The position numbers and the translations under genes were made by a program. The notes below the pieces were generated by a model. The model ran no database searches. It was not told the DNA's origin and saw only the letters and a list, made by a program, of their open reading frames with translations. Positions 2,730 through 35,667 of a stretch of DNA of 64,000 nucleotides are shown here, piece by piece. Origin of the DNA: a virus (Duplodnaviria; Caudoviricetes); the IMG/VR virus record IMGVR_UViG_3300029288_004944, positions 32,001-96,000 of that record. One strand, written 5' to 3'. Every line of letters begins with the position of its first letter. Position 1 is the first letter of the stretch.

Positions 2730-2745
2730 GGCTGCTCCGATACAC

Positions 2746-3153: not shown

Positions 3154-3160
3154 TTTATCC

Positions 3161-3802: not shown

Positions 3803-3820
3803 TTATTACATCTCCTTTCA

Positions 3821-4339: not shown

Positions 4340-4343
4340 TTTA

Positions 4344-10454: not shown

Positions 10455-10472
10455 TGCTTCTCTCTCCCCTCT

Positions 10473-10790: not shown

Positions 10791-10806
10791 CTTGTACTCC
10801 CCCTTA

Positions 10807-11223: not shown

Positions 11224-11255
11224 AACTTCTCCACTACCTTTATTTCTTTAACCTT

Positions 11256-12298: not shown

Positions 12299-12574
12299 CT
12301 AACTTCTCATTCTTATCGTGTTTGCATCTACTATGGATTCAACTAACCCCAACACTCTCCCACCATTATAAGAACCTACATCCGGAGAATAAACATGCCC
12401 ATTGGCATCAGCACAAACAAGACCGTTTACTTGAAAATCTCTACTATTATCCACATAAACTTCCCACAACTGTCCCTTAGGAGACATAAACACATTATTG
12501 GGAAAATCATTACAATTCTTTTTTTCCACCACATCCGGACCCAATCGTTTAATAATATCTTGTTTTATATCCAT
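12299..12574 (-). CDS. R10-L11 N-tagged protein, body family beta
   Basis: MDIKQDIIKRLGPD; NGLVCADANGHV...GRVLGLV. Confidence 0.8.
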   Translation of the reverse strand: MDIKQDIIKRLGPDVVEKKNCNDFPNNVFMSPKGQLWEVYVDNSRDFQVNGLVCADANGHVYSPDVGSYNGGRVLGLVESIVDANTIRMRS

Positions 12575-12584
12575 TTCTTAATTC

Positions 12585-12818
12585 CTATTTAAAAAATACT
12601 ATCTTTAATGGCAAATCTTTCAATAAATTAGGGATTTGATCTTTTTTTAATTTAATTTGATCTTTACGTTTAGAACAAAAACTCTTATTAAATGTATCTA
12701 AAACAATTTCCATTAATTCAATGCATTTCCTACAATATACATGTTCTTTGCCCATTATATGAAATATCCCTATTTTATTTTTTTCTCCACACCTATCGCA
12801 CACTTTATTCCTTTCCAT
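12585..12818 (-). CDS. Small zinc-finger protein
   Basis: CDRC...YCRKC; GGGGAGG RBS. Confidence 0.65.
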   Translation of the reverse strand: MERNKVCDRCGEKNKIGIFHIMGKEHVYCRKCIELMEIVLDTFNKSFCSKRKDQIKLKKDQIPNLLKDLPLKIVFFK

Positions 12819-12836
12819 TGTATACCTCCCCCTTAT

Positions 12837-12989
12837 TTATTTAACCTGACTTTTCTCCAACTGTATAGCCCTGCGTTTCATATCATTTTTAGACATAGTA
12901 AAATTACTTATAACAACAACTGAAAGAATTATTATTATGACTGACACTATCAAAACATTTATCCAATCTATTTTATTGTTTTCTCCCAT
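12837..12989 (-). CDS. Small single-TM membrane protein (50 aa, not in ORF track)
   Basis: Hand translation MGENNKIDWINVLIVSVIIIILSVVVI...; AGGAGG RBS. Confidence 0.6.
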   Translation of the reverse strand: MGENNKIDWINVLIVSVIIIILSVVVISNFTMSKNDMKRRAIQLEKSQVK

Positions 12990-13008
12990 TTGTATCCTCC
13001 TACTTTAG

Positions 13009-13278
13009 TTAGGCTTCTTTATCTTCCGTAAGACTGCTATCTGCTTCGCTAAGGATATTCTGCATATCTTTCTTTGATTTTGGCACAGGAACTTTTTTAT
13101 CTGCCACATTGAACCATCCATATTGAGCAAGTATACCGATCAAAACCCATCCCCATTCCGGAGAAGGATTTCTTCTTGCCATAAGACACACTAAGAGCAT
13201 AGCCAACAAACAGAGTAAGAACTTTCTGCTCAGCATTGAACTCTTTAAACTCTCTTTCTTATTTTCTGTATTTGCCAT
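13009..13278 (-). CDS. Two-TM membrane protein, holin-like
   Basis: SRKF followed by two hydrophobic segments and a charged C-tail. Confidence 0.5.
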   Translation of the reverse strand: MANTENKKESLKSSMLSRKFLLCLLAMLLVCLMARRNPSPEWGWVLIGILAQYGWFNVADKKVPVPKSKKDMQNILSEADSSLTEDKEA

Positions 13279-13293
13279 TTCTCTTAATCCTCC

Positions 13294-13773
13294 TTACATT
13301 TCTCTTTTTTTCTGTTTTATTATTCTATATTTTACTCTTTTGTCTAATTCAATTCCTGGATTTTCATAGTTCGTCATCATTCTTGCTATAACAGGCACTA
13401 AATCCTTTTGACCAAGTTTTTTTGCTCGTTTCATACAAATCTCAGGATCTGTGGGTATATGTATAAATTCCAAATCATAATTATATTCTCTTGCCAAACT
13501 AATCCAATGAAGTCTTAAAGAAAAAGTAAGAAACGTACCATCTACTAAAATATTCTTATTTTGATCTAAAAAATATCTGGCCATAAACTTAATTGTTGCC
13601 CAAACAAGATCTTCTGCCGGAGCATAAAACCTTTGACCATGAACAACAAGCCTCATATCATCAGGACAAAGATATATATATTCAGGATTTTTCTTTAAAA
13701 ACTTCTTAGCATATGTCGTTTTTCCAGATCTCGGATATCCCATCATAAGAATCATCTTATTTCTTTTCTTCAT
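13294..13773 (-). CDS. P-loop kinase (AAA_33 / polynucleotide-kinase-like)
   Basis: GYPRSGKTT; ILVDGT; C..R. Confidence 0.8.
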   Translation of the reverse strand: MKKRNKMILMMGYPRSGKTTYAKKFLKKNPEYIYLCPDDMRLVVHGQRFYAPAEDLVWATIKFMARYFLDQNKNILVDGTFLTFSLRLHWISLAREYNYDLEFIHIPTDPEICMKRAKKLGQKDLVPVIARMMTNYENPGIELDKRVKYRIIKQKKREM

Positions 13774-13794
13774 TTATTACCCCCTTATTCCTTT

Positions 13795-14217
13795 CTAATC
13801 CCCAAACTCTCTATAATCCCGGAAACCATGCATTTCCCTATCAAGTTCAGGGTTGTCGCCATCAATCTCAATACTCCCCCTAAAATCATTATCAATTGAA
13901 AAAGCAGACCTATCATCAAAATTATCATGCAATGGAATAGTTATAAATAATTGTTTTGGATTGTCAGATATACCACTAAGTGTGCCAACAACTTTACAAT
14001 CCTCAGGAAGTGTTGCCCCTATTTCATTTGCAAATAACCTACTATCCTCTGCCACACAAACAAGATCTCCTATATGCCACCCTATTATATCAATATTACT
14101 AATTCTAAATACAGCAGCCGAAATCCTGCTGAACGTATACTCATAACAACCCTTTAAATTTTTATTTACTTTAACATCAGGGCCCAATCGTTTTATAATA
14201 TCTTGCTTTATATCCAT
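13795..14217 (-). CDS. R10-L11 N-tagged protein, body family beta
   Basis: MDIKQDIIKRLGPD; GDLVCVAEDSRL...KVVGTL. Confidence 0.8.
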   Translation of the reverse strand: MDIKQDIIKRLGPDVKVNKNLKGCYEYTFSRISAAVFRISNIDIIGWHIGDLVCVAEDSRLFANEIGATLPEDCKVVGTLSGISDNPKQLFITIPLHDNFDDRSAFSIDNDFRGSIEIDGDNPELDREMHGFRDYREFGD

Positions 14218-14232
14218 ACATTCCCCCCCACA

Positions 14233-14433
14233 TTATCTTACTTCTGTCATTCCCACCGGAACCGATTTTTCCATTGCTCTGCTTGTCTTAACCATAGAAG
14301 ACAAGAATAGACCTAACAATATTGCCAATATGCAAAATGCCGTTATAGCAAAACCAATGCTGTTTTCTTCTTTTTCATGCCCGGTTGTTACTGGAATTCC
14401 TTTATATTCTTTACTACCCCTCAACTTAGTCAT
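14233..14433 (-). CDS. Small single-TM membrane protein
   Basis: Hydrophobic IGFAITAFCILAILLGLFL; GGGAGG RBS. Confidence 0.6.
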   Translation of the reverse strand: MTKLRGSKEYKGIPVTTGHEKEENSIGFAITAFCILAILLGLFLSSMVKTSRAMEKSVPVGMTEVR

Positions 14434-14569
14434 TTATCCCTCCCTTATTTATTAAACCTTTTACCAAACCAATCTAAAATAATAATTATCACTGAAAATA
14501 TTATAAAATTTAAAAGTATGATCAAAAGAGCAATTCCAAATAAATATAGAATGTGCATTTTACACCTCT

Positions 14570-15112
14570 CTATAATAATAGATGTTTACATAACTCTTTT
14601 GCCTCTTTAAAGGAATAGCCTTCCAGTGTCTTCTCATTCACTGCATCATTGTAGTTCTTATGATCAGCATCATTAAAATCCTTTTCATTTAAAACTTTAG
14701 GGCTACTGCCTGCTACGCTAACAGCAGGTGTTGCAAAATCTATAATCAAATCTTTATTTTCAATACCCTTAGCACTTCTCCATAAATCTCTAAAAAAAGC
14801 ATCCTGATGTTCAATGACATATGAACCATAAGTTCCGAATTTATCCTGTTCGCTCTTTGGTATCAAATTACGCAACTGTGTCAATTCTTTATCGGCTAAT
14901 TCAAAAGCCTCTGCCTCAGCAGGGCATTGTTTCTTAAACTCATCATAATTGTCTTCTCTTAACTTATCAAATTCTTTTTCTGTATATTCATCCTTTGCGA
15001 TACTTTCAAGATCACACAGTTTTTGTCCTGTTATAACATATACAAAATCATCTTCATTATCAAATGATTTCAAAACAAAATCCATTAATTCTTTATACTC
15101 AGTAGAAACCAT
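14570..15112 (-). CDS. Hypothetical protein
   Basis: 180-aa ORF with GAGG RBS. Confidence 0.7.
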   Translation of the reverse strand: MVSTEYKELMDFVLKSFDNEDDFVYVITGQKLCDLESIAKDEYTEKEFDKLREDNYDEFKKQCPAEAEAFELADKELTQLRNLIPKSEQDKFGTYGSYVIEHQDAFFRDLWRSAKGIENKDLIIDFATPAVSVAGSSPKVLNEKDFNDADHKNYNDAVNEKTLEGYSFKEAKELCKHLLL

Positions 15113-15166
15113 TCCTCACCTCTCTATTCATCTATACTATATTATGTATCTATGCAACAAAAAGTA

Positions 15167-15652
15167 TTACTTTATTGTGTTTGATACTTCCTCTAATAAC
15201 CCAACTGTCATATCCAATAATGTAGCATCGCTATTTACAGGCTCAGATACAGATTGTATTTCAGGTGATGCAACAACATCATCTTCCTTATTTTCATATT
15301 GCTTATAAAATTGGGAATGTCTTTTCTCTAATATAGCCTTATCTTCCTCTAAAAATGCTTTCACATAAGATCTGTCTTCTAAAATTGATAAAAGATTATC
15401 CCTAACAATATCAGAGTATTTTACTTTTCCATATCCTGTATCAAATAAAATATCTATATATCCGGGATCTTTTCTTGCGATAATTGTACCCGCACTACCA
15501 GCAGGGACCACTTCACCTTTTTCATTTAAAAGATCATATGTAGTAAGCACGCGATTTCCTTGCTTATATATTTTTGACCAATCAAGGGTTCTATTATTCT
15601 GATTTTTTATAATTTCAAACCAAATTCTATCCAATGGAATTTTGTTGATCAT
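15167..15652 (-). CDS. Hypothetical protein with SH3-like beta module
   Basis: GNRV.....L...GEVVPAGSAGTI....IDILFD. Confidence 0.6.
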   Translation of the reverse strand: MINKIPLDRIWFEIIKNQNNRTLDWSKIYKQGNRVLTTYDLLNEKGEVVPAGSAGTIIARKDPGYIDILFDTGYGKVKYSDIVRDNLLSILEDRSYVKAFLEEDKAILEKRHSQFYKQYENKEDDVVASPEIQSVSEPVNSDATLLDMTVGLLEEVSNTIK

Positions 15653-15655
15653 ATT

Positions 15656-16630
15656 TTATCCTATTATTTTATTTTTATGTTCTTTTTTATGACAATCTTC
15701 GCAAAGTGTTATTCCATTGTCAATATCCCATAAAGGTTTATATAGCATTGCACTTTCGTATAAATCAATCAATGGTGAATGTTTTTTAATTTTCTCCAAC
15801 AATAATGCAAACTCTTTAATATGATGTGCTTTTAAATTTCCACCTCTACTATCCCCACACTTTTGGCAGGTATAATTATCTCTTTTAAAAACATCTTGAC
15901 GCCATTGATCATATTTTAAAGAACTCCTTATTCTTTCTACTGCAGGCGTTACGCCACCTTTCCAATTAGGATGATTTGATCCCTTCATTAAATCTGATTG
16001 CTTTTTTTTGTGTTCTTCTGTCCAATGTCCGTGTATATATTTACGTTCATTGCCCCATTTATCATACCTTAGATGTAATTGCTTACAACCGCAACCACAA
16101 AAAATCATTTTAGATGAACATTCTTTACAAACAAAATTTTTATAACTAATTAATGTGCCATCATTGTCTCTACCGCAAACTGCACAATGCATATCAATAT
16201 GAGATTCTGACTGTTTACTTTTTGATTCTTCTGTATGATGTTTACCATTCCAATGATGACCATTTATATATTTACGTTCTCTACCTTGTTTACCATATTT
16301 TGAACGATATTGGCCACAATTACAAGCACAAGGAATTTGAATTGATAAACAATTATCACAAACATATTTATCCTTTCCTAATGTTCCATCGTTATCTTTG
16401 TGGCAAATTTTACAATGCAAACCAAGTTTATCATGCCCTTTCACATATTTATACTCTCTACCTCTTTTGTCATGTTTAAAATGTAATTGATTACATCCAC
16501 AGGTACACGGTATTTTAATGGATAGACAAAAATCACAAACACGCTTAATATCACACAATGTTCCATCATTGGATTTACCGCATATTTTACAATGCCTTAT
16601 TCTCATTCTTATTTTCTCCACATCCACCAA
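15656..16630 (-). CDS. HNH homing endonuclease with three Cys-rich repeats and NUMOD3 motifs (likely start 16606)
   Basis: NHPNWKGG..WRQDVFKRDNYTCQKCG..AHHIK..NGITLCEDCH; HHTEESKSKQSESH. Confidence 0.85.
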   Translation of the reverse strand: MVDVEKIRMRIRHCKICGKSNDGTLCDIKRVCDFCLSIKIPCTCGCNQLHFKHDKRGREYKYVKGHDKLGLHCKICHKDNDGTLGKDKYVCDNCLSIQIPCACNCGQYRSKYGKQGRERKYINGHHWNGKHHTEESKSKQSESHIDMHCAVCGRDNDGTLISYKNFVCKECSSKMIFCGCGCKQLHLRYDKWGNERKYIHGHWTEEHKKKQSDLMKGSNHPNWKGGVTPAVERIRSSLKYDQWRQDVFKRDNYTCQKCGDSRGGNLKAHHIKEFALLLEKIKKHSPLIDLYESAMLYKPLWDIDNGITLCEDCHKKEHKNKIIG

Positions 16631-18081
16631 CCACGATGTTCTGTATTACCATCTACATCCAATTGATTTAATTCTCCATTAGTATACCCTTCAATTATCA
16701 TATTTTTAACATGTTCTTTATTGCTATCATCTAATTCTTCATCATAATTTTCATCTCCAGTCCAATTATAATCAATTGACCATCCATTATCTAATATTGT
16801 AGAATGCTCCCACTCCTCTTCTATTTTGTTTTCGATTAAATCTATACCAAGTTCTTTAGATTTCTTTTCCACAGATGCTGTTATTGAATCATTAACAGGA
16901 CCAATTCCCAAATCGGAATTTGATAATCTTTTTTCTGTACCCACACCATCAGCATTATCTTTATATATATCTTTATTCAAAATAGATGATGGTTTTGATT
17001 TTTCCTCATAAGGATTTATTTTTAGAGGTACTATTTCTAATTCTCCAAGATCTGCTTTTGTTTCTTTTGATCCAATCTTCTGCCATGTACCAGCCTCGTA
17101 CTGTTCTGTTGGGGGATTAGGAAATGCATGCTTAACCCAAGCATCAAGTACATCGGGATTTGCAGAATAAAATATATATGGACCTTCTGTTACTGCTCCT
17201 TGTTCATTTTTCCACAATAAAACGTTTGCTTTCATTTTTGTTTTAATCTTTGTTGCTTCTTCTGCTGTAAATGTGGCTCCTTCACCATACCCCACCACAG
17301 ATCCTGCATCATCTTTTACAACTTGATCCTCGATCACGTACGCAATCTTTACCAAACTTATTCCGGCTCCTTCTGCCTGCTTTATTACTCGCTTCTCAGT
17401 AGAAGCATCAATTTTCTCTTTAACAGGTCCAAAAAGGGTTTTAGATGATAATGGAACATCAAATAATTTCTTATTATCACCTGATTGATATTTATCTTTT
17501 GGATTATACGATAAACCAACACTTTCAAACGTATCGGATGGTTTCTTTGCTTCGGCAGGACGATCAACAAATAATTTACTATTTTCGCCCTTACCAACAT
17601 TGTCAGTAATCGATACTTTCTCTATATCTTTTACTGATTTAGCAGATGGTTGAGCAAATAATCCTGAATTTCTACCTGCAGGAACTTCTTTATCTCTTTT
17701 TAATTCAGACTTATCGCCTTTTAACGCCCCATTTGCATCAGCAGACAAACTAACACTCTCCAATTCTTTCGGTTTAACTCCATCAATTTTGTCAATATTT
17801 TTATTGATAGAATCTCCGTCTTTTAATGCCTCAGATCCTTTGTCAGATTTGCTATCACAGGGTTTCTCTTGATAATCTTTTGGCTCTTCTTTTTCCTCGG
17901 CAGCCGTCACAAATTGATTTCTTGCCAATTCAGGATCATCTTCTGGCTTTGGAAGATTAACTTTTGTTTTTACTTTTTCTTTTGGTTCTTCCTTTTTTTT
18001 CGGTGCCTCTTTAGTTACAATTACATCAGATTTCTTATTCATACCTAATAAATCTTTCATATTATCCAAAAACTTTCCCAT
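16609..18081 (-). CDS. Low-complexity charged protein with degenerate internal repeats, possible virion/scaffold protein
   Basis: K/E-rich N-half; repeats of E-x-V-x-[LI]...G-x-N-x-x-L-F. Confidence 0.7.
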   Translation of the reverse strand: MGKFLDNMKDLLGMNKKSDVIVTKEAPKKKEEPKEKVKTKVNLPKPEDDPELARNQFVTAAEEKEEPKDYQEKPCDSKSDKGSEALKDGDSINKNIDKIDGVKPKELESVSLSADANGALKGDKSELKRDKEVPAGRNSGLFAQPSAKSVKDIEKVSITDNVGKGENSKLFVDRPAEAKKPSDTFESVGLSYNPKDKYQSGDNKKLFDVPLSSKTLFGPVKEKIDASTEKRVIKQAEGAGISLVKIAYVIEDQVVKDDAGSVVGYGEGATFTAEEATKIKTKMKANVLLWKNEQGAVTEGPYIFYSANPDVLDAWVKHAFPNPPTEQYEAGTWQKIGSKETKADLGELEIVPLKINPYEEKSKPSSILNKDIYKDNADGVGTEKRLSNSDLGIGPVNDSITASVEKKSKELGIDLIENKIEEEWEHSTILDNGWSIDYNWTGDENYDEELDDSNKEHVKNMIIEGYTNGELNQLDVDGNTEHRGWWMWRK

Positions 18082-18114
18082 TTTACTTCCTCCTATAATA
18101 ATTTTGATTACTTA

Positions 18115-18387
18115 TTATTTCAAATGTGATGGAGTTATTATATTTGACTTTGGTTGCTGTTGAGCAGAAGACAATATACCAAGAACAGCCTGTCCACAAC
18201 CCTGCATCTGTAAATAACTCTCTATTTCATGTAATGCCCTTCTTACATCAACGATCGTGGCTTCTCTTTTAGACTCTTTAAGAACATCCTTTGTGATTAT
18301 AAACGAAGGTTTTCCATCACTCGGCACTACCACTAAAAATGCTGTCTCAGCCTGTTCAATCTCTTTTCCTGTCTTTTCTTCTTCCAT
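18115..18387 (-). CDS. Hypothetical protein
   Basis: AGGAGG RBS; 90 aa. Confidence 0.7.
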   Translation of the reverse strand: MEEEKTGKEIEQAETAFLVVVPSDGKPSFIITKDVLKESKREATIVDVRRALHEIESYLQMQGCGQAVLGILSSAQQQPKSNIITPSHLK

Positions 18388-18413
18388 TTTATTCCTCCTA
18401 TCTATTTTTTATT

Positions 18414-18962
18414 TTACCAATCCGTAGCGGAATTTGGTTCGGGATTTTTATCTTCACTTATATCATCCACCTTTCTTATATCCCTCAATTGTTCAAGATT
18501 TTCATAATCATCAGGAGCCGTTGACATACTATCCATTGGCTCATTAATAACATCTTTATCTTGTCCAAAATTCTCTATCTTTCTTACTTCATCTTTATTT
18601 AATATCTGAAGTTTCACGGAACTTTTAGGAAAGTAAACTAATATTTTATTACTACCTAAAAATTCCAATATTTGACCTGTTCCGTTATTACCCTTACCAC
18701 TCACAGCCTCTTCTGTCATTTGCACAGGATCCCCATAGGAAAGAATGTCTCTTTCATCCATGAGATTCTCATTTCGTTCAACAGAAAATTCTGTTTGGGG
18801 CGTAGTTCCGCGATTAGGGCTTAACATACCAAAGGGATCGCCATTACCACGATCTCGATTTATATCATAAACTGATCCGTCAGTCCCCCTCTCATAATAT
18901 TCTTGACCATCATTTGTTAGTGGGCGTTCATCAAATATTGTGTCTGCTGCTTTATTTAACAT
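18414..18962 (-). CDS. Acidic hypothetical protein
   Basis: Start re-called at 18962 (MLNKAAD) because the promoter occupies the upstream in-frame stretch. Confidence 0.7.
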   Translation of the reverse strand: MLNKAADTIFDERPLTNDGQEYYERGTDGSVYDINRDRGNGDPFGMLSPNRGTTPQTEFSVERNENLMDERDILSYGDPVQMTEEAVSGKGNNGTGQILEFLGSNKILVYFPKSSVKLQILNKDEVRKIENFGQDKDVINEPMDSMSTAPDDYENLEQLRDIRKVDDISEDKNPEPNSATDW

Positions 18963-18976
18963 TTTATATACTCCAT

Positions 18977-19005
18977 AGTATAGCACAAATATTGTCATTT
19001 GTCAA
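18977..19005 (-). promoter_or_regulatory. Sigma70-type promoter (repeat copy 2)
   Basis: TTGACA-aatgacaatatttgtgc-TATACT. Confidence 0.8.
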
Positions 19006-19012
19006 GCAACAC

Positions 19013-20332
19013 TTAAACATTACCACCCGATGGTTTATCACTTGTCTCTCCTGACATATAAGAAGGTTGTTCTGTCGATTTATTACCCAATGTTGAATAA
19101 TCTTCCATGTTTACATCCTCCCATACTGTATCTACAACTTCGGTAACAGGATTTTTTTCGCCAGGTCCTTGATCTAAATTATCATTCTTTCCCCTATTTA
19201 GCAATTCCTCATTGATTTCTTTTATCTTCTCTACGCTTTCTTTCGTTAAGGTTCCTGCTAAAATCTTCTTTTTTGCTTCAATCAATTCATTATCGCTCAT
19301 TTGTTTTACTTGTTTCTCAAACGACGCTTCTGCTGTTATCGATCCTAAAAGATCCAATGTATACAATTTTTCTCCCGCTTTAACAAGAAACGTATCTTGA
19401 CCATAAAAAGAATGATCTTGCAACGATCTCAATAATCTCACTCTCGATACAATACTCTTTTTAAATTTATCATTGTCAAAGTTTTTAGATGCTATCCAAA
19501 CCCCCGATGAATCTTTCTCAAAAAGAACGTTATCAACAATCACCTGAGGATAATCCATTTTATCAAACATATTCGATACCACTCCGGCATTGATCAATAT
19601 ATGAGATATGTCAGAAGCAGAATCTTTATTATAACCCCTTGCCCTTAGCCCAACTACATACATAAGAGCATCCACATCTGCACTGCCGATCTTTTTCTTT
19701 TCCTTTTGATATGATTTCCAATAGTTTTTTAACTCATCTGCACCCTTACCACTGAAAAAATTATAGAAGTAATTAAACACTTCGCTGTAATCAGCATCTT
19801 TTTCTGCCACAACTAATTTCCCACTTTTTTCTTCAATATTTTCCTGTGGTTGTTCTACTTGTGCTTCATTTTGTGGCTCATTACCTCTTTCCTTGGGAGC
19901 CATTATAGATTGAATATATTCATTCAAAAGATTGTCAAAATTTTGATCTTGACCCGAATAAACATAAAAAAGCCCAAGCACTTTGTCCATCTCGCCTACG
20001 CCGGCGATCATTGCAGAACTTATGAATGAATCAATATTAATACCTGATTCCTGTTCAATTAATGCTTTATTGAATACCCTATTTGACAATGTAGGCGACT
20101 GCCTCACTTGCTCTTCGTATATCCCTTGGCCAGGCATCATCTGATCAGGGCTACCATTTTCAACAGCAGGATTTTGATTATTAATCTCAGAGCCAAAACC
20201 CGTATCGGAATTATCAGCCACAATCTTTTTTAAATTGCCAACAAAGTCGGTGTCCTGCCGTGTAGCCTGTTTCTTTACCCCTTCAATTTTTATTTCACAT
20301 TCTTTTAATAAGCCTTCAAAAAATTTAGACAT
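19013..20332 (-). CDS. Hypothetical protein, possible virion protein
   Basis: MSKFFEGLL; VKKQA and KKIVA motifs; AGGAGG RBS. Confidence 0.75.
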   Translation of the reverse strand: MSKFFEGLLKECEIKIEGVKKQATRQDTDFVGNLKKIVADNSDTGFGSEINNQNPAVENGSPDQMMPGQGIYEEQVRQSPTLSNRVFNKALIEQESGINIDSFISSAMIAGVGEMDKVLGLFYVYSGQDQNFDNLLNEYIQSIMAPKERGNEPQNEAQVEQPQENIEEKSGKLVVAEKDADYSEVFNYFYNFFSGKGADELKNYWKSYQKEKKKIGSADVDALMYVVGLRARGYNKDSASDISHILINAGVVSNMFDKMDYPQVIVDNVLFEKDSSGVWIASKNFDNDKFKKSIVSRVRLLRSLQDHSFYGQDTFLVKAGEKLYTLDLLGSITAEASFEKQVKQMSDNELIEAKKKILAGTLTKESVEKIKEINEELLNRGKNDNLDQGPGEKNPVTEVVDTVWEDVNMEDYSTLGNKSTEQPSYMSGETSDKPSGGNV

Positions 20333-20529
20333 AATAATTCCTCCTAAAATAAGTTAAATTATCAAAATATAGCAAAACAACCAAAATCAAGCATTTTATC
20401 ACTATATCACATAAGCACTATTTTACATAATAATAATTAACTTTACAATACTTATCATAAACATATTAAAGAGGTCAACACATCATACCCCTTCATATAT
20501 AGGGGAATTATAACCATTTTATAACCATT

Positions 20530-21258
20530 TTACTTTTCAGAATTCGGAAAATAATTATTCTTTTCCCTGCTCGTTTTTATTACTCCGTTAAAGATCTCAC
20601 GCTCTGCATTGCTCAATATGGCCAAATTATGCACATACATATGACAACTATGACATAAAATACAAGAATTTTTCGTTTGCTTGGGTAAAGATTCGCTCAT
20701 ACAATGACAATACAATCTATTATTATCCCCATCCCCACACATAACACACCTTTTATTATCTCTCTCAAACACAACATTATGAAATTTATCAACCAAATCC
20801 AATCTTTCCCTTTCTAAAATCACTATAGAATAAGGCATTTCAAGAATATCTCTATTTAACAAATCATTTATCAAAAGATAATGAGCCATATGCCCCCCTC
20901 TTGTCAAAGCAGATATTTCTTTGGATTTAATCTTCTTTCCCATTATAATCTTGCATAATTTCTGTAATCCCCTACTCAAATTCTTTGAAACAGCAGCCTG
21001 TGAGATCTTTAAAAATTTCGCAATTTGAGCCTCGGACATATGTTTCCATATTTTAAGAAATATAGCATCTCTTTGCTTAACAGTTAATTTTTTTAATGCA
21101 AGTTGCAAAACAAGTTCTTTTTCTATATGTTTTTTACTTTCTACGTTTTCTCTATAATCCGGGACAATTTCATTGTCGATCTTATATATTAGATCTTTTA
21201 CAATTTGCTCTCTTTCTTCGTTCTGCTCAATCTCATTCTCACTCATTAGAACCTCCAT
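20530..21258 (-). CDS. Sigma70 region-4-like HTH fused to a degenerate HNH domain
   Basis: LKKLTVKQRDAI...MSEAQIAKFLKISQAAVS..L.RG; VFERDNKRCVMCG...LCHSCH. Confidence 0.7.
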   Translation of the reverse strand: MEVLMSENEIEQNEEREQIVKDLIYKIDNEIVPDYRENVESKKHIEKELVLQLALKKLTVKQRDAIFLKIWKHMSEAQIAKFLKISQAAVSKNLSRGLQKLCKIIMGKKIKSKEISALTRGGHMAHYLLINDLLNRDILEMPYSIVILERERLDLVDKFHNVVFERDNKRCVMCGDGDNNRLYCHCMSESLPKQTKNSCILCHSCHMYVHNLAILSNAEREIFNGVIKTSREKNNYFPNSEK

Positions 21259-21553
21259 GTTTTTCTTGCATTTTTTTCTTATTTATAAATTCATTATAAA
21301 AATATATAACTCGTTCAGCATTCTTGATTAGAATAAATTCCAATGGGCTTGATACTTCCTGTATTCCCCACTCAGCATACCTGCGTTTCTTTGTGCCATC
21401 CATGGCAGCCAACTTCAATTTCTTTTCATTTTTATCCGGCAAGCCATTTAATATACTTTGTATTCTTTTACCGTCATCTTTCATCCTCTGAATAACATAT
21501 AACAAGGCTTCTTTTTCCACAACATAAGCATCATCTCCAAATATTTCTTCCAT
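21239..21553 (-). CDS. Hypothetical protein
   Basis: AGGAG RBS; 104 aa. Confidence 0.65.
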   Translation of the reverse strand: MEEIFGDDAYVVEKEALLYVIQRMKDDGKRIQSILNGLPDKNEKKLKLAAMDGTKKRRYAEWGIQEVSSPLEFILIKNAERVIYFYNEFINKKKMQEKHGGSNE

Positions 21554-21566
21554 AAAAAACTCTCCT

Positions 21567-24007: not shown

Positions 24008-24018
24008 GTCTACTCCTT

Positions 24019-28255: not shown

Positions 28256-28360
28256 TCAAACCTCTCTTATTATTTTTTACTGCCACTCTTATCGTGTCAA
28301 ACAGTTAACCAACAACTCGACGAATTGAGCAAACTGTTAGGTAATCATTTTTAATTATTA

Positions 28361-28783
28361 TCAGGCAATTGCATCTCTATTTAGCGTCGGCATAGGTCTC
28401 ACAGATCTCTCCATTCTATCTCTCTCTGAATCCGTAGCTATTTCATTAGGAGATGAGGGTTCTGTCTGAGCAGAACTCCATATGCTATTATCAGTATTTC
28501 TTTCATTTATATTTCTATCTCTTGTCGATATTACTGCTTCAACTAAAGCATTCGTATCTCCCCATGATCTTGTTGATTTATGGAATTTTAAAAGAAATGT
28601 TAATAATTCCTGCAATTTACTCGAAAAATCCTTATCTTCATCAATCTCAACTTTCATTTTAATAATTTTTTCAATTTCTTTAAAATTTTCAGGATGTAAA
28701 AGAACTGTCAAACAAGCCAAAATTTCATCTCTTTTACTAACATCTCCACCCAACCTTTTTGCAATTTCTTTTGCTAAATCCAT
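28361..28783 (-). CDS. R10-L11 N-tagged protein, helical body
   Basis: Start re-called at 28783 (GGAGG RBS; MDLAKEIAKRLGGD). Confidence 0.7.
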   Translation of the reverse strand: MDLAKEIAKRLGGDVSKRDEILACLTVLLHPENFKEIEKIIKMKVEIDEDKDFSSKLQELLTFLLKFHKSTRSWGDTNALVEAVISTRDRNINERNTDNSIWSSAQTEPSSPNEIATDSERDRMERSVRPMPTLNRDAIA

Positions 28784-28798
28784 AATTCCTCCCAACAC

Positions 28799-30154
28799 CT
28801 ATATTTCCTCAATACTCTCAATTTTTTCATCATTAAATTGTTTAAAATGTTCAAGTGCATTCCATTGTTCATTTGGGAGCAAGTGATAGCATTTAACTCT
28901 TAAACCTTTGGATATAGCAAGAGCAACTAATCCTGGCACATCCATACTTTCATTAACAGCAATTAAATCAAGAACACTCTTACTAATTATTGATATTCCT
29001 ATAGAAACTTCAGACTTATGCACAGGCTTTTCATTTATCCTAATAATATTATTATTCTCATCATGTATTATGTCACCAAAGGGAATTTTTCTGCAATATT
29101 CTTTGCAGGCTATTGTAATGTCACTATTTTGCTCACAATGTTCTTTCTCCATCTTACGAAAATTCATTGTAGTAATTATATCTCCATTCAGTAATAAAAG
29201 ATTATCAAATTCTTGATCCTGCATCAATTTAATGGGGCCCACAGTTCCAAGAGGAGAAGATTCTACAATATATTTTACACTGAGATTCTCACTCTCGCAA
29301 TAATTTTTAATAAAACTACCCTTATATCCTAATGACAATGTTAAGTCCTCAAAGCCCTGCAAACTTAAATGATCAATAAGATTGTGTAAAACAACTTTAT
29401 CATTAAAAGGGAAAAGAGGCTTTGGTAAAACATATGTAAACGGCCTTAACCGTGTACCTTTTCCACCACACAATATTAAAACTTTCATAATTCCTCCGAC
29501 TACATTTAAATCAGCAGGAATCTTTAAAAGTTGATTTATAACATTGGTTGGAACTATAATTGAATGCTTTTCACAAGACTCATTATCTATTACAATATCT
29601 CCTTCTATATATGACATTCTATGTCCATCCGTTGAAACTACCTTTAAAATATTCTTAGAAATATCAAAACAAGCACCATTCAAAACAAACCTTGAACTAT
29701 CAAGAGATATGGCATTTTTAACAAAATTAAGCATATCCAAAAATACCGGATAATTAATATTAAAAGAAACAACCCCATCTCCTTTCTTTGTAATATCAGG
29801 AAATTCTCCACTTGAAACATCCAAATAATATTCAGCATTTGGCCAACTTATTTTAACGGCACCATTAACCTTTTCCTGCTCAATCTCTATAACATTGTCA
29901 CCACAAGACAAAATAATTCTTGCAAATTCATCCGCAGGAACAATCATACTCCCGCCCTCAATAACATCTACATTATAAACAATAACTTTTGTAGATAACT
30001 CTAAATCTGATGACATCATAACAATGTCTTTTTCTTCCTGCCTAAACTCTACCAATACATTATTCATCATTGCAACTGAATTTTTACCCTTAACATTTCC
30101 TGCTACCAAAGAAACTTTTCCCGCCAAATCCGATCCTTTTACATTCGCTTTCAT
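28799..30154 (-). CDS. Truncated DNA pol III beta clamp (DnaN) fused in-frame to a sugar-phosphate nucleotidyltransferase
   Basis: SDLEL, EFPDI, SRFVLNG, VSTDGHRM, IIVP (DnaN), then MKVLILCGGKGTRLRPFTYVLPKPL with its own GGAGG RBS and ATG at 29488. Confidence 0.8.
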   Translation of the reverse strand: MKANVKGSDLAGKVSLVAGNVKGKNSVAMMNNVLVEFRQEEKDIVMMSSDLELSTKVIVYNVDVIEGGSMIVPADEFARIILSCGDNVIEIEQEKVNGAVKISWPNAEYYLDVSSGEFPDITKKGDGVVSFNINYPVFLDMLNFVKNAISLDSSRFVLNGACFDISKNILKVVSTDGHRMSYIEGDIVIDNESCEKHSIIVPTNVINQLLKIPADLNVVGGIMKVLILCGGKGTRLRPFTYVLPKPLFPFNDKVVLHNLIDHLSLQGFEDLTLSLGYKGSFIKNYCESENLSVKYIVESSPLGTVGPIKLMQDQEFDNLLLLNGDIITTMNFRKMEKEHCEQNSDITIACKEYCRKIPFGDIIHDENNNIIRINEKPVHKSEVSIGISIISKSVLDLIAVNESMDVPGLVALAISKGLRVKCYHLLPNEQWNALEHFKQFNDEKIESIEEI

Positions 30155-30174
30155 TAAATCCTCCCCTTTTTATT

Positions 30175-31026
30175 TTATTTATAATCTCCAAAACAAGCAC
30201 TCAAAACAGATCCAATAATACCCTTTTCATCTCCACAAACATTTTTAATTATGTCCCATTTGGTCCTAAAATATTGAAAACCATCACTAACATGTACGCC
30301 CCTTTGCGGCTCATTTAAACCTGCATCTTTATGAAAAACACTAACGTTTGCCAATGCACATTCCATACCTGCAACCCTTACCATTAAATCATAATCCTGA
30401 TCATCAACCACGCAAAAATAACCTTCATCCAGAAATCCTCTATTACATTGTATAAATTGTTTATTTTTAGCAAGATCTCTTAAATAGCCACTATATTGAT
30501 TTTCATTATTGATAATTAAGTTATTCACATAATTCAACAAGATCTCCCTATTCTTCTGAATCCAATTATAAATCTTAATAGTTGTTCCGCGTGGAATGTA
30601 TTGGCAACATCCTTGAATATATCCCATTATCATTTTATTCTGTTCATCTCTTTTTAATACACAAGCCTGACTTCCAACTGTTCCCACTCCCTCATTCATC
30701 TCTACGATCTTAATCATAGCATCTTCCCACCCAAAACTTTTAATAACAATATCTGTATCAGTTTTAAATAAATGGTTTGTTTGAGCTGCGGAAAACGCCA
30801 AATTTACTCCAGGCCCTATTCCTATATTGGAACTCAAGTTCAACACTTTAATATCTTTTGATTGAATAGATTCGAGATATTGCTTAATATCATCTCCAGC
30901 ATTGTTGTTCACAAATATGATCTCATATGGCCGAGTTGTGAATGCTTTAACACTATTCACATACTCTATCAAATTATCCAAATTTTTATGCACTACTGCT
31001 AAAATTGAAATCTTTTCATTATCCAT
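30175..31026 (-). CDS. GT2-like glycosyltransferase (family B)
   Basis: FVNNNA; KTDTDI; DDQDY; YFRTKW. Confidence 0.7.
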   Translation of the reverse strand: MDNEKISILAVVHKNLDNLIEYVNSVKAFTTRPYEIIFVNNNAGDDIKQYLESIQSKDIKVLNLSSNIGIGPGVNLAFSAAQTNHLFKTDTDIVIKSFGWEDAMIKIVEMNEGVGTVGSQACVLKRDEQNKMIMGYIQGCCQYIPRGTTIKIYNWIQKNREILLNYVNNLIINNENQYSGYLRDLAKNKQFIQCNRGFLDEGYFCVVDDQDYDLMVRVAGMECALANVSVFHKDAGLNEPQRGVHVSDGFQYFRTKWDIIKNVCGDEKGIIGSVLSACFGDYK

Positions 31027-31898
31027 TTTTTCTCCAAAAAATCATTTATCAATTGTTTGTATTTACCATTCTTTATATCGTGTTCCCAAATCACAAGACA
31101 ATCCCATCCGTATTCTTTATATTTGGCAACGATATCTTTTTCATTGAGACGATAACGATTACCTGTTCCGTTAGGATAACAAATTGGACAATCATGCCAA
31201 TAACATCCATTAACCTCTACACACTTCTTTGCTTCTATATTAGTAAGATCAGGATTCATATTTCCAACCCAAAAAGATCCATCTCCCGTGTATCGCCATT
31301 CTTTTGGTTTAATTCCTTGCAAATGATTATAAATTAATGTTTCGGGCTTATTGGGAAAAATACTATATTTTCCATCTTTACGTGCTTGAATTACACCTTG
31401 ACGATTTTTTTCTTTTGTTTCTTCCTTGTGATGTTTACCATAAAAAGGATTTTTTTCACCTTTATATGATTCTGATTGTTTTCTTTTTGATTCTTCTGTG
31501 CGATGTTTACCATAATTGTAATTTTTTTCACCTTTATGTGATTCTGAATTCTTTCTCTTATGTTCTTCTGTCTGATGTTTGCCATGCCAAAATGATTTTT
31601 TACCTTTCTGCGACTCTGAATTTTTTCTATTAGATTCTTCTGTACGAGGTTTACCATACATTGGATTTTTTTCACCTTTATGTGATTCTGATATTTTTTT
31701 TCTTGTTTCTTCTATAAAATGTCCATCTATACATTTATGCTCTTTGCCTTGTTTATCATATTTTGGCTTTAGTTGATTACAACCACAAATACAGGGGATT
31801 TGAATAGATAAACATTCTTTGCAAACACGATTAGAAGCACTCAATGTGCCATCGTTGGGTTTATGACAAGACTTAACTGCACAATGCCTTATTCTCAT
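30999..31898 (-). CDS. Homing endonuclease: Cys-rich repeat, NUMOD3 repeats, Vsr/DUF559-like nuclease
   Basis: GEKNPMYGK.RTEES repeats; PD...VEVNGCYWH...LVIWEHD. Confidence 0.8.
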   Translation of the reverse strand: MRIRHCAVKSCHKPNDGTLSASNRVCKECLSIQIPCICGCNQLKPKYDKQGKEHKCIDGHFIEETRKKISESHKGEKNPMYGKPRTEESNRKNSESQKGKKSFWHGKHQTEEHKRKNSESHKGEKNYNYGKHRTEESKRKQSESYKGEKNPFYGKHHKEETKEKNRQGVIQARKDGKYSIFPNKPETLIYNHLQGIKPKEWRYTGDGSFWVGNMNPDLTNIEAKKCVEVNGCYWHDCPICYPNGTGNRYRLNEKDIVAKYKEYGWDCLVIWEHDIKNGKYKQLINDFLEKKWIMKRFQF

Positions 31899-31917
31899 AT
31901 ATTATAAATCTCCTAAA

Positions 31918-33072
31918 TTATCTACCATAGTCTATTCCATATTCTTTTATTTTTTTCAAATCTCCTGGTTTAACATAAATCCAAACAAAATCCCAATCTT
32001 TGCCTTCCACTAATTTTAAAAATGGCTTATCAGCACACTCAATAGCAAGAGAACTTTTGTCTTTAAATACTTCATTCTTTTGCATTTGTTGAGTCAATTC
32101 TAACTCTCTTTCTCTGCCCGGTGGACGAGTATGCCATATAAGATCTAATGATCCCCACCCAATATCATATTGTGGAAATTCGGCATGAAGCAAATTAAAC
32201 TTTTCCTGCACAGAAATTGCCATAAGCATTACATCTCTAAATCTACCCATAAACTTCTCATCACTAAAAGACTTTGGATCGTGTGGCAATATAACCTGCA
32301 CAGGACTACTATTTAATCCTACTCCACATAGACATTGTCTCCTAAACCATTCATTTACAGGAAAATCATCCCAAGCCATTGCATGGACAGCCCTATATTC
32401 CTGAAAACCCACAAACCTCATATTCCACTTTTTCAAGAAATTATATGTACCCTCATGCAAAACTGCCTGTCTTGCTTGCGTATCCTCATAATCGCCCTCA
32501 CCCAAATGAATATAATTAAAATCAATTATCTCAGCAATCCTATATCCACCCATCCGAACTCTTAATGCAAAATCACACTCAACTTGATGAACTAAATTTT
32601 CATCCCAACCACCCACATTTTTATATGTCTCTTTTCTTAACGCCCAGCATCCGCCAAGTATCCATTGCACTTCTTTATATCCATCCCTTATTATATAATC
32701 ACTTCTTCCTGACATGTGCGGCCCGATCATTCCAATTTCAGGATATTTATCAAAATATAATTCAAATATTCTATTCCATCCATGATTAATAATAACACAA
32801 TCAGATTCCAAATGAATTATACAATCATATTGAGCAAGATCAAATGCCCTATTAAATGTTGCAGATACTCCCATATTTTTTTCATTCTTAAAGATCTTAA
32901 TACGGGGATCTTTTAATCCATTCAAATATTCTCCTACACCAACATCGGGAGAACAATCATCCACAATTATAATCTCAAAAGGATCTACACTATTCTTTAA
33001 AACAGATTCAACACACTTTTTCAAATAATCCGGCCTGTTATATACTGCAATACAAATTGAACTGCCCAACAT
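31918..33072 (-). CDS. GT2 glycosyltransferase (family C)
   Basis: YNRPDY; DDCSPD; ESDC; GGWDE; FLKKWN...WDDFP. Confidence 0.85.
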   Translation of the reverse strand: MLGSSICIAVYNRPDYLKKCVESVLKNSVDPFEIIIVDDCSPDVGVGEYLNGLKDPRIKIFKNEKNMGVSATFNRAFDLAQYDCIIHLESDCVIINHGWNRIFELYFDKYPEIGMIGPHMSGRSDYIIRDGYKEVQWILGGCWALRKETYKNVGGWDENLVHQVECDFALRVRMGGYRIAEIIDFNYIHLGEGDYEDTQARQAVLHEGTYNFLKKWNMRFVGFQEYRAVHAMAWDDFPVNEWFRRQCLCGVGLNSSPVQVILPHDPKSFSDEKFMGRFRDVMLMAISVQEKFNLLHAEFPQYDIGWGSLDLIWHTRPPGRERELELTQQMQKNEVFKDKSSLAIECADKPFLKLVEGKDWDFVWIYVKPGDLKKIKEYGIDYGR

Positions 33073-33848
33073 TATGGCCTCCCATTCGTTCTTACTCTCT
33101 CTTTCGCATTATAGTACTCACGCAAACAATTACCACACCTACTACAAGAATATTGACCCTTATATCCACAAGCATACACATAAGGATTATCTTTGAATAT
33201 TGCCATTACCTCATCAATCTTTTCCTGCTTTGGGCACCAATAGCTATTTAATGTTCTTTTTTTCCACATATAACAATCTTTATATTGCTCAGGTATTGTT
33301 TCATTATAATAAGCCATAAATGTTAAAACTACCGGAGTAGGCCTTACACCATCATTTTGAGTATAATACTTTATAGCCGGTTTTACAATATTTTCTATAT
33401 TCCACATAGAAGTCCTAATTCTGACAAACATTAGATTCTCCCAAGAAAAAACTTTATGAAAATCTGTATCTGTCATTTTACCAGGATTTATCGTCAATAC
33501 AACAGGCCCTGGAAAATCAGAAAGATTGGCAGGAATTGCTGTATTAAAAAAATAATCTTTGTACTGCTTGGCTGTTTTTTCAACTAATTCTCTTTGATTA
33601 TTTGAATCATTGCCATCATTTACACGCACAATTCTCCCCTTAGCCATTTCTTTAGTTGGGATATGAGGCAAATTCTCATCTAATGGCTCCAAATATGAAC
33701 GCCCCGACTGAAAAAAGCAGTCATCACAATTATTTGGACATCTTCCTGTTTGTGGTATACACTCTATTATACCTGAACCTTTTACCTTAGGATTCCACTT
33801 CCATTCTTCACTAAATAATTCTACGCCATTATTTATATCTCCACCCAT
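33072..33848 (-). CDS. Atypical radical-SAM-like Fe-S protein
   Basis: CPNNCDDC (CxxxCxxC) plus C-terminal C....CxxCxxC. Confidence 0.55.
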   Translation of the reverse strand: MGGDINNGVELFSEEWKWNPKVKGSGIIECIPQTGRCPNNCDDCFFQSGRSYLEPLDENLPHIPTKEMAKGRIVRVNDGNDSNNQRELVEKTAKQYKDYFFNTAIPANLSDFPGPVVLTINPGKMTDTDFHKVFSWENLMFVRIRTSMWNIENIVKPAIKYYTQNDGVRPTPVVLTFMAYYNETIPEQYKDCYMWKKRTLNSYWCPKQEKIDEVMAIFKDNPYVYACGYKGQYSCSRCGNCLREYYNAKERVRTNGRP

Positions 33849-33861
33849 AATATACCTCCCC

Positions 33862-34083
33862 TTATTTTAAATTCAATTCATTTGCTTTAAATAATTTTTT
33901 CACTATTTCTTCGTTTGCCACAACTTCACTCATATCGGCTCGCCACCATATCTTTTCGCCACTTATAGTTTCTATTAAAATTTGTGGGTGATCACAATAC
34001 GCTATCATTCTTCCCACTTCATTTATTCCACCTACTCCCCACTTAATTGCAATTAATTTTCCAAAATCCTTTTCGTCTAACAT
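33862..34083 (-). CDS. Hypothetical protein
   Basis: AAGGAG RBS, directly downstream of promoter copy 3. Confidence 0.65.
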   Translation of the reverse strand: MLDEKDFGKLIAIKWGVGGINEVGRMIAYCDHPQILIETISGEKIWWRADMSEVVANEEIVKKLFKANELNLK

Positions 34084-34111
34084 TTAACCACTCCTTTATT
34101 TCAACATATCC

Positions 34112-34140
34112 ATTATAGCACATAATATGTCATTTGTCAA
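34112..34140 (-). promoter_or_regulatory. Sigma70-type promoter (repeat copy 3)
   Basis: TTGACA-aatgacatattatgtgc-TATAAT. Confidence 0.85.
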
Positions 34141-34156
34141 ATCTTTCCTATCTTTT

Positions 34157-35392
34157 CTATTTTGAATAAAAATCATTAAAGATTTTATCCCTATACATTA
34201 CAATCTCTTCTGCTGTTAAATGGCTTGTAGAAACCATTGCCCTATACTCTCCACTCCTACCTTTCATATAAGAATCATCATAAGATGTATCTCTTAATTT
34301 GATGTCATATTTATCCATATTTTCTCTTATAGTTGTCCCCGGATATGGGTAAAAAATATTGGCATCAAGACCATCCATACCTATACTCTTTGCCCTTTCA
34401 ATCCATTTCATTGTTTCAGCAATAGTCTCATGGCTTTCGCCCGGCAATCCTATTATAAAAAATGTCTTAATAATAAGCCCTGCATCTTTACACCTTTGAA
34501 TTATTTCCATATTCTTCTCAACGCTTGTCCTTTTGTTTACCATATCAAGCATTTTCTGAGATCCACTTTCACATCCAAATCCCACGTGAACACATCCTGT
34601 ATCTTTCATTATTTTAAGTTTTTCCAATGTTGTCGTGTCATCTCCACGAATCAAGCATCTGTAAATCATACCTTTCTTTAACAAATGCTCTCCTATACGT
34701 TTTACCCTGTCTTGATCCAAAGTAAACACATCATCCTGAAAAACAACTGCTCTATAACCCATATCATATAAAAGATCAATCTCTTTAATTACATTCTCCA
34801 CAGAATTTCTTCTTATCTTTCCTTTCCACATCGAACAAGAATTACAGAACGCACAATCCCACGCACATCCCCTACTTGACATAATAGATGTCGCAAGCCG
34901 ATCGCCCACATAATACTTATAACTCTTTAAATCAACAGCATTAAAATCCGGCATGGGCAAAGTTGCCATATCCTTTACATACATCCCCTCAATTATCCTA
35001 CTATATGGCTTTCGGCCCAATTCTATTTGACGAACAAGATACGACAGGGCATGCTCCCCTTCTCCCTTAACCACATAATCAAAATAATCTAAACACTCCT
35101 GCGGTCTAACCGTGGGGTGAACGCCACCGGCCACCAAAACAGACTTAGGATAGAGTTCTTTTAAACGTGTAGCGATTTTAATGGCGTAGGGGTATTGGGG
35201 GGTTGTTAAAGATAAACCATATATATCAGCCTGCTCATTAAATTCTTCATAATTATCTCCGGTCAAATGTCTCACAACCACATCATACCCGTCCTGCTTT
35301 AAAAATGCAGAAAGATACAATAACCCTAAAGGCGTATTAACTTTTTCATCCATTAAAAAAGGACTTGGTGTTTCTATTAAAATTATTTTCAT
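34157..35392 (-). CDS. Cobalamin-binding radical SAM protein (class B methyltransferase-like)
   Basis: PLGLLYL; GGVHPT; GEGE; SRGCAWDCAFC; FQDD; GCESGSQ; IGLPGES; PYPGT. Confidence 0.9.
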   Translation of the reverse strand: MKIILIETPSPFLMDEKVNTPLGLLYLSAFLKQDGYDVVVRHLTGDNYEEFNEQADIYGLSLTTPQYPYAIKIATRLKELYPKSVLVAGGVHPTVRPQECLDYFDYVVKGEGEHALSYLVRQIELGRKPYSRIIEGMYVKDMATLPMPDFNAVDLKSYKYYVGDRLATSIMSSRGCAWDCAFCNSCSMWKGKIRRNSVENVIKEIDLLYDMGYRAVVFQDDVFTLDQDRVKRIGEHLLKKGMIYRCLIRGDDTTTLEKLKIMKDTGCVHVGFGCESGSQKMLDMVNKRTSVEKNMEIIQRCKDAGLIIKTFFIIGLPGESHETIAETMKWIERAKSIGMDGLDANIFYPYPGTTIRENMDKYDIKLRDTSYDDSYMKGRSGEYRAMVSTSHLTAEEIVMYRDKIFNDFYSK

Positions 35393-35667
35393 TCATTCCT
35401 CCATCTTGGTTTTTTTATTATATCACCATTTTCATTATAAAATTCTTGTTTAATCATTTTACCGCTTTCATACCATTTACGTATCAAAATATTGCCATTG
35501 GAATAAAAACCTTCAAAAGCAGGAAGATCATTATCTCTATGATATTGACCATATTTCCACCAAAAAAGACAACCAATGTTGCCATTAGGCCAATAACCAA
35601 TATATCTTGGTTTATCTGATTGATCATCAGGCCCAAGGCGTTTTATAATATCTTGTTTTATGTCCAT
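35389..35667 (-). CDS. R10-L11 N-tagged protein with MORN-variant repeats
   Basis: MDIKQDIIKRLGPD; YWPNGN..YHRDNDLPA..FYSNGN..FYNENG. Confidence 0.75.
   Translation of the reverse strand: MDIKQDIIKRLGPDDQSDKPRYIGYWPNGNIGCLFWWKYGQYHRDNDLPAFEGFYSNGNILIRKWYESGKMIKQEFYNENGDIIKKPRWRNE

Follow-up and report, generated by a model that had tools for sequence, protein, structure and literature searches.

The capsid targeting sequence (CTS) of phage T4 is an N-terminal peptide of 10-20 residues. In otherwise diverse internal proteins it is the sole conserved part, and it directs their loading into the scaffolding core (PMC3012670; PMC5694885). In the giant phage SPN3US, the diverged head paralogues gp53 and gp54 are only 34% identical and share identical 15-residue N-termini, which the authors read as CTS-like (PMC5694885). 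The subject here is a 14-residue peptide, MDIKQDIIKRLGPD, encoded three times in a 64,000-nt stretch of viral DNA (the window), which is made up of bases 32001-96000 of a 139,457-bp contig (IMG/VR record IMGVR_UViG_3300029288_004944). Judged by the proteins that carry it, MDIKQDIIKRLGPD looks like one allele of a modular N-terminal address tag. The tag sits at the free N-terminus of many fast-evolving small proteins of different folds, and it is under strong purifying selection as a protein while its DNA drifts.

Copies of the tag and drift of their DNA

Degenerate back-translation of MDIKQDIIKRLGPD gives exactly three matches in the window, all on the minus strand, at 12533-12574, 14176-14217 and 35626-35667, and none in 100 dinucleotide-preserving shuffles of the window. 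Each match forms the first 14 codons of an open reading frame (ORF) with an in-frame stop 1-5 codons upstream, and a purine-rich ribosome-binding site is recognisable before two of the three. The ORFs, all on the minus strand, are t1 (12299-12574, 91 residues), t2 (13795-14217, 140 residues) and t3 (35389-35667, 92 residues). The part behind the tag, the body, is an orphan in t1 and t2 and a MORN-like set of beta-hairpins in t3. Seven codons vary among the three copies, and every difference is silent (GAT/GAC, AAA/AAG, ATT/ATA, CGA/CGC, TTG/CTT, GGT/GGC/GGG, CCG/CCT). Similarity among the three proteins ends at residue 14-15, and blastp of the bodies alone returns E = 0.38 or worse. The original prediction had described identical tags at these three positions, the same seven silent codon differences, a loss of similarity just after the tag, and a third copy inside a glycan island on a MORN-variant body. 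All of this is borne out; the third copy has WbqC-like and radical-SAM neighbours, and its body is MORN-like, with a MORN_2 match below the cut-off and a beta-hairpin model.

The whole contig carries seven exact copies of MDIKQDIIKRLGPD, one copy identical at 13/14 residues and one at 11/14. MORN-like paralogues bear seven of these nine. A looser motif, M-x-[ILV]-[IK]-x-x-[IMV]-I-x-R-[WL]-G-x-D with [DNSG] at position 2, heads at least 24 of the roughly 190 called ORFs on the contig (about 13%, or one in eight). In a six-frame regex scan, 24 of the 27 matches on the contig lie at ORF starts on the coding strand, and no match was found inside any protein of the phage.

A tag profile was pooled from 32 tags of the phage and a diverged relative. 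Conserved positions are Met1 (32/32), [DNSG] at 2, [ILV]3 (31/32), [IK]4 (31/32), [IMV]7 (32/32), Ile8 (28/32), Arg10 (30/32), [WL]11 (31/32), Gly12 (23/32) and Asp14 (24/32). Asp or Glu is conserved at positions 2, 5, 6 and 14, and the 32 tags have no conserved Cys, Ser or Thr. There are two alleles, which grade into each other: a Lys4/Leu11 type, to which MDIKQDIIKRLGPD belongs, and an Ile4/Trp11 (Trp-type) form, e.g., MSVIDTIVNRWGKD. Charged residues occur every 2-3 positions, and the longest hydrophobic run is 2-3 residues. A Sec or Tat signal peptide is ruled out by the net charge of -2 to +1 and by the lack of a hydrophobic core of about seven residues following a basic N-region.

Conservation is confined to the coding sequence. 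In an alignment of 10 copies from -60 to +60, the upstream DNA is unconserved, and conservation runs from the ATG to codon 14, extending to codon 22 in the MORN paralogues. RNAalifold predicts no RNA structure; its consensus energy is -1.1 kcal/mol, with seven weak pairs that lie within the coding part. Exact tags on different body classes share a mean of 7.45 of 13 codons, compared with 6.76 expected from genome codon usage. Ten of the 13 codons vary among the seven exact copies, and at least 13 nucleotide changes, by our own count, are all silent. Random single-base changes in the tag are silent in 20.5% of cases, which gives a rough figure of 0.205^13, or about 1e-9. Across the family, Arg10 is encoded by all six Arg codons (AGG, AGA, CGT, CGA, CGG, CGC).

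The tag could in principle owe its similarity to a DNA or RNA feature, such as a recombination cassette, a translation-initiation element or gene conversion, or be the remnant of a recent duplication. Every exact copy uses CGN for Arg, while the genome prefers AGR (76%), and the five exact-tag MORN paralogues share more tag codons than chance allows (0.78 observed, 0.52 expected). Their body codons at identical residues also exceed expectation (0.67 observed, 0.55 expected). Because the excess is somewhat greater in the tag than in the body, common descent or occasional 5' gene conversion contributes inside the MORN subfamily. As an account of the whole family, a nucleic-acid cause is already largely refuted and extremely improbable, given the unconserved upstream DNA, the lack of predicted RNA structure, the chance-level codon identity between classes, the wholly silent differences and the six Arg codons. 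Selection on the peptide is supported by the silent differences, the chance-level synonymous sites, the lack of upstream or RNA conservation and the retention of tags in the relative. The original prediction had favoured such selection over a DNA cassette or a recent duplication. That reading stands, since each refuting condition it had named turned out negative for a DNA or RNA cause; the one qualification is the contribution of descent or gene conversion within the MORN subfamily. The tag is a clear-cut case from nature of a peptide that is fully conserved while its synonymous sites stand at chance level.

Bodies, predicted structures and relatives

The bodies are small, 62-295 residues, and were compared by blastp and hhalign after the first 16 residues had been removed. 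MORN-like bodies are a true family with 32-63% mutual identity. The Trp-type tag heads two clusters on the minus strand. Cluster A (2376-4688) is composed of five ORFs with starts at 2729, 3153, 3349, 4339 and 4688 and the tag pattern M-x-h-I-[DE]-x-h-I-x-R-W-G; four of its five proteins form one alpha/beta family (hhalign probability up to 84%). Cluster B (10080-12275) is composed of six ORFs with starts at 10454, 10790, 11223, 11603, 11871 and 12275. Its bodies are small, apparently beta-rich and weakly related or unrelated to one another (hhalign probability 11% or less). The t1 and t2 bodies give similarly weak hhalign signals with the Trp-type beta bodies (probability 11% or less), and several further tagged bodies are singletons with no similarity to the rest detectable by either program.

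One member of cluster A, at 3161-3349 (minus), has only 62 residues. Its counterpart in the relative (L011:6676) carries the same tag type and has 126 residues, so the shorter ORF may be truncated locally.

No Pfam or PHROG family was found for the tagged bodies apart from sub-threshold matches to MORN_2 (PF07661), which score 18.9 bits (t3 body) and 23.3 bits against a gathering cut-off of 29.6. The t3-type bodies contain repeated YWxNG...HRDxxLPA units, a pattern that fits MORN_2. Foldseek against the PDB gives no match at E <= 0.001 for the MORN or the alpha/beta model; the fold matches of the MORN model are weak (E = 0.08 or worse). An Atlas feature search on body function gave no usable match, and the Atlas's own model is poor.

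Two AlphaFold models, of t3 and of the alpha/beta family, were built from paralogue or orthologue alignments. In the t3 model, the MORN body is predicted as beta-hairpin repeats with a predicted local distance difference test score (pLDDT) of 85-95. Residues 4-15 have pLDDT <50; residues 4-10 form a helix, and a low-confidence connector leads on to residue 21. In the alpha/beta model, a helix at 3-12 is followed by a linker at 12-23 (pLDDT <50) and a body at 76-89. Both models thus present the tag as a detached short helix that is not packed on the body, and they do so for two unrelated bodies. The helix is amphipathic, with hydrophobic residues at 3/4, 7, 8 and 11, and is neutral to slightly acidic. 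The linker between tag and body is 10-18 residues long, low in confidence and charged in sequence, and the models suggest that it is probably flexible.

The N-terminal 30 residues of 19 tagged ORFs were made into a profile, with which 1.84 billion representative proteins were searched (E <= 0.001). Of the 18 matches, 17 start at residue 1 or at the Met of the tag itself, and one is an unrelated repeat protein. Six of the 18 were identified, and apart from that repeat protein they are proteins of the phage or its relative. The diverged relative is represented by syntenic contigs from JGI samples (L011-L013; samples 3300037067 and 3300035208) with at least 10 tagged ORFs, and two further tagged ORFs are cut by a contig end or a late gene call. 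It carries exact MDIKQDIIKRLGPD on a diverged MORN body. One homologue, P0092, keeps 13/14 tag residues. A metagenomic homologue of t2, P0004, is 91% identical, with 87% in the body, and keeps the tag.

Core genes are 72-94% identical between the phage and its relative: 94% for ribonucleotide reductase, 75% for a 2246-residue protein and 72% for the C-terminal half of an Acb1-domain protein. In five of the six best-match pairs, the tagged bodies share 37-59% identity; the sixth pair, P0004 and t2, reaches 87%. The tags of the six pairs match at 14/14, 14/14, 13/14, 12/14, 11/14 and 6/14 residues, where one of the two 14/14 pairs is the near-identical P0004/t2 pair. By this comparison, the tagged bodies evolve fast while the tags mostly stay.

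The tag appears to be specific to this phage clade. In IMG/VR, neither the exact tag nor the Trp-type motif returned a match, and tblastn of t3 and of a 30-residue tag peptide against 50,697 phage records gave none. A scan of JGI metagenomes with a loosened Lys-type pattern gave one match, where about one is expected by chance. This match, MDIKQEVIKRWGK, is internal, near the C-terminus of a 204-residue protein on an unrelated high-GC contig (L014:7014-7048, minus). It was rejected as a tag, being probably a chance likeness forced by the pattern.

Genomic setting of the tagged genes

The 139,457-bp contig has a GC content of 33% and a GC skew of about -0.4, and its minus strand carries about 90% of the long-ORF length. 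It encodes a portal, a large terminase, an anaerobic ribonucleotide reductase and an exonuclease. The same sequence is also contained in a 216,802-bp contig from ENA assembly ERZ27247363, which puts the phage genome at 217 kb or more. On that contig, the portal is followed by a 993-residue protease-scaffold fusion, a decoration-like protein and a 307-residue major capsid protein. The protease domain (L008:13653-16634) matches the PHROG head maturation protease at E = 4e-20. Judged by the portal, the nearest cultured relative is Bacillus phage G (35% identity), which has the same decoration-then-capsid gene order. A landfill metagenome is the only full holder of the phage among public sequencing runs and may be the source sample; the same search lists no RNA sequencing run that holds the phage. 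Megablast of 25 kb against the 50,697 phage records gave no match. Gene content, the 216,802-bp contig, the kinship with phage G and the landfill holder together identify the source as a jumbo phage, so far uncultured, that infects an anaerobe and is a distant relative of Bacillus phage G.

Two side observations concern the head and packaging genes. Four large proteins encoded close to the packaging genes (genome 9952-12867, 14503-15627, 16927-19557 and 24620-26596; L001/L002) share the recurring pattern [AS]-S-[LV]-N-K-[KV]-[AS], which could be a candidate prohead protease cleavage site. The decoration-like protein at L008:16858-17319 (plus) starts MAIIIKKEVNRHWG, which resembles a Trp-type tag two residues out of register. 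This likeness may be due to chance, or the start may be distantly related to the tag.

In the direction of transcription, the tag clusters lie directly upstream of the genes for the 2246-residue protein, the terminase and the portal. Between the two clusters, a 1135-residue protein (6473-9880, minus) has a 2H phosphoesterase/Acb1 domain at residues 700-813; Acb1 counters the cyclic-oligonucleotide-based anti-phage signalling system (CBASS). An untagged ORF at 3350-3802 sits among the cluster A ORFs, and t1 directly adjoins cluster B. Tagged genes are scattered among metabolic and replication genes. A 140-residue ORF at 28361-28783 (minus) carries the variant tag MDLAKEIAKRLGGD on a singleton body. 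Another ORF has its 3' part in the window (63797-64000, minus) and its GTG start beyond it, at position 64153, with the tag (M)DIIQTIINRWSEG. In the glycan island, where GT2 and radical-SAM genes are seen with Pfam, t3 is flanked by a WbqC-like gene and a B12-binding radical-SAM gene. The latter (34157-35392, minus) overlaps the stop end of t3 by 4 bases. It probably belongs to the glycan island, and a tie to the tag is possible.

A near-consensus sigma-70-type promoter (TTGACA-17-TATACT with an extended TG) lies at 6185-6213 (minus), upstream of the genes that lead into cluster A. It bears on the timing of expression and is no part of the tag. K-mer and promoter scans recover a host-type promoter that repeats and AT-rich boxes close to ribosome-binding sites, and no late-promoter motif could be defined from them. 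The promoter belongs to a strong, near-identical cassette (TTGACAAATGAyA...TGyTATAAT/TATACT) found at least five times: at window 6185-6213, 34084-34156 and 60843-60904 (all minus) and at genome 8531-8608 and 27258-27329. One copy immediately precedes an HNH endonuclease gene. The cassette may be a mark of early transcription units, or it may move along with mobile genes. HNH/NUMOD homing-endonuclease-like genes are found at window 15656-16630 and 30999-31898 (both minus) and at genome 23628-24584, 26586-27257 and 101195-102100. Members of this family have a common N-terminus of their own, zinc-ribbon-like (M..HC.V/IK.CGK.NDGTL), which is part of a real domain and unrelated to the tag.

Possible destination of the tagged proteins and known systems

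There is probably one common receptor into which the tag helix docks. Confinement of the tag to one clade favours a clade-specific, probably phage-encoded receptor over a widely conserved host hub. By analogy with T4, the best single guess for this receptor is the assembling head, although this reading is doubtful. The helix would dock on the scaffold or the inner surface of the head, and the tagged proteins would be loaded as internal or ejected cargo and delivered together with the DNA, as with the T4 CTS. The MORN-like and other fast-changing bodies would then act as binders or inhibitors of host factors. The genomic context, with clusters flanking the Acb1/2H protein upstream of terminase and portal, fits head loading loosely.

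Several observations weigh against head loading. In sequence, the tag bears no similarity to the CTS of T4; the T4-type L/I-x-E cleavage motif is missing, and no Glu is conserved at the tag's end. None of the tagged proteins contains the S-[LV]-N-K-[KV]-[AS] motif of the four large proteins beside the packaging genes, and no tag is seen on the portal, protease-scaffold, decoration or major capsid protein, the members of the head module that were examined. Cluster A stands behind a near-consensus host-type promoter, and early expression would fit it at least as well as late. The presence of tagged proteins in the virion is itself argued by analogy. Given these points, head loading is a tentative option, about as likely as docking on another common partner, and the remaining explanations are less likely. 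The major capsid protein (44-row alignment), folded together with the 30-residue tag alignment, scored 0.00 in a single fold without controls, a value that speaks neither for nor against binding. An 'RLG' in the N-arm of the major capsid protein (residues 15-17) was considered as a relic of the tag and rejected, because 43 homologues and phage G keep the helix but do not have the motif.

The other common partner would lie outside the virion, either a host hub (polymerase, chaperone or protease adaptor) or a phage machine such as the 658-residue AAA+ ATPase, and the tagged proteins would be early factors of host takeover or counter-defence that gather at a single site. This too is a tentative possibility. 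It agrees with the detached docking helix of both AlphaFold models, the promoter upstream of cluster A, the lack of a recognisable protease site in the tag and the dispersal of tagged genes among metabolic and replication genes; no candidate partner has been identified, however, and a host hub sits poorly with a tag confined to one phage clade. A separate receptor may also be dispensed with. The helix would then be an inherited element of one old, fast-diverging superfamily, kept for an intrinsic role such as homo- or hetero-oligomerisation. The two true multigene families (MORN-like and alpha/beta), the coiled-coil-like hydrophobic spacing of 3-4-7-8-11 and the intergrading of K-type and W-type tags speak for such an origin. 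It is nevertheless unlikely, since MORN beta-hairpins, alpha/beta bodies and several singletons have no detectable relationship, the helix is unpacked from the body in the models, and 14/14 identity across classes with chance-level synonymous sites requires a constraint far above that on the bodies.

Two further explanations give the helix a different kind of partner. Recognition by a phage-encoded modifying enzyme, either a radical-SAM enzyme of the type that acts on ribosomally synthesized and post-translationally modified peptides (RiPPs) or a glycosyltransferase, is suggested by the 4-base overlap of t3 with the B12 radical-SAM gene and by the GT2 and radical-SAM members of the glycan island. 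This is very unlikely: the radical-SAM gene adjoins one of 24 tagged genes, and the two clusters are 20-30 kb distant. The bodies are folded domains of 60-280 residues (pLDDT 76-95) and not short core peptides, Pfam finds no RiPP recognition domain in the radical-SAM protein, and the tag offers no conserved Cys, Ser or Thr. The amphipathic helix, with Trp or Leu at 11 and a K/R-R pair, could also target membranes, and its -IIKRLG- may resemble the membrane-targeting sequence of MinD. Known bacterial membrane-targeting helices are cationic. With a net charge of -2 to +1, conserved Asp or Glu at four positions and hydrophobic runs no longer than 2-3 residues, the tag makes a poor member of that class, and membrane targeting is quite improbable.

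Docking into a common receptor can be extended to a hitherto undescribed, clade-specific sorting code, although this is rather doubtful. One N-terminal helix with two graded alleles and a dedicated phage-encoded receptor would route about one in eight genes to a common destination, and new cargo would be recruited by gaining 14 codons. If the tag is an address label, it groups orphan proteins that otherwise resist annotation (about 13% of the genes seen) into one functional class and provides a handle for finding the common receptor. The 14-residue peptide would be testable as a portable loading signal, as was done for the T4 CTS, and the fast-evolving bodies, MORN-like ones included, would become candidates for proteins that bind or inhibit host factors.

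Among known proteins, MORN_2/YwqK-type repeat proteins are comparable to the t3 body and its paralogues only. The two share beta-hairpin repeat units, weak Pfam MORN_2 matches and a model with a single-layer beta-sheet. They differ in that t3-type proteins score under the Pfam cut-off and that homologue searches recover the tag in this phage clade only. Encapsulin cargo-loading peptides are short peptides on a flexible linker that dock diverse cargo inside an HK97-fold shell. They are usually C-terminal and have a Gly-Ser-Leu-type motif. The principle of a short docking peptide on a linker would be the same, whereas the jumbo phage tag is N-terminal and no sequence relation to encapsulin peptides is seen.

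The closest parallel is the T4 CTS of IPI, IPII, IPIII and Alt, likewise an N-terminal peptide on small, otherwise unrelated, hypervariable and partly clustered proteins (PMC3012670, PMC5694885). In both systems, cargo changes fast and the tag stays (in the jumbo phage, bodies 37-59% and tags mostly 11-14/14). The jumbo phage tag differs in its unrelated sequence, its other lineage and its lack of the L/I-x-E motif; it has at least 24 carriers on 139 kb compared with a handful in T4, and any loading or cleavage of these carriers is putative. SPN3US resembles the jumbo phage as a giant phage with an identical N-terminus on otherwise diverged proteins. Its gp53 and gp54, however, are a pair of paralogues from a single family; the peptide they share contains a protease motif, and proteomics has proven their processing (PMC5694885). 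In the jumbo phage, read from sequence only, the carriers are many and include unrelated bodies, and the tag contains no known motif. The principle of an N-terminal targeting peptide on diverse phage cargo is known from T4; the jumbo phage tag is set apart by its unrelated sequence, its different lineage and its presence on about one eighth of the genes.

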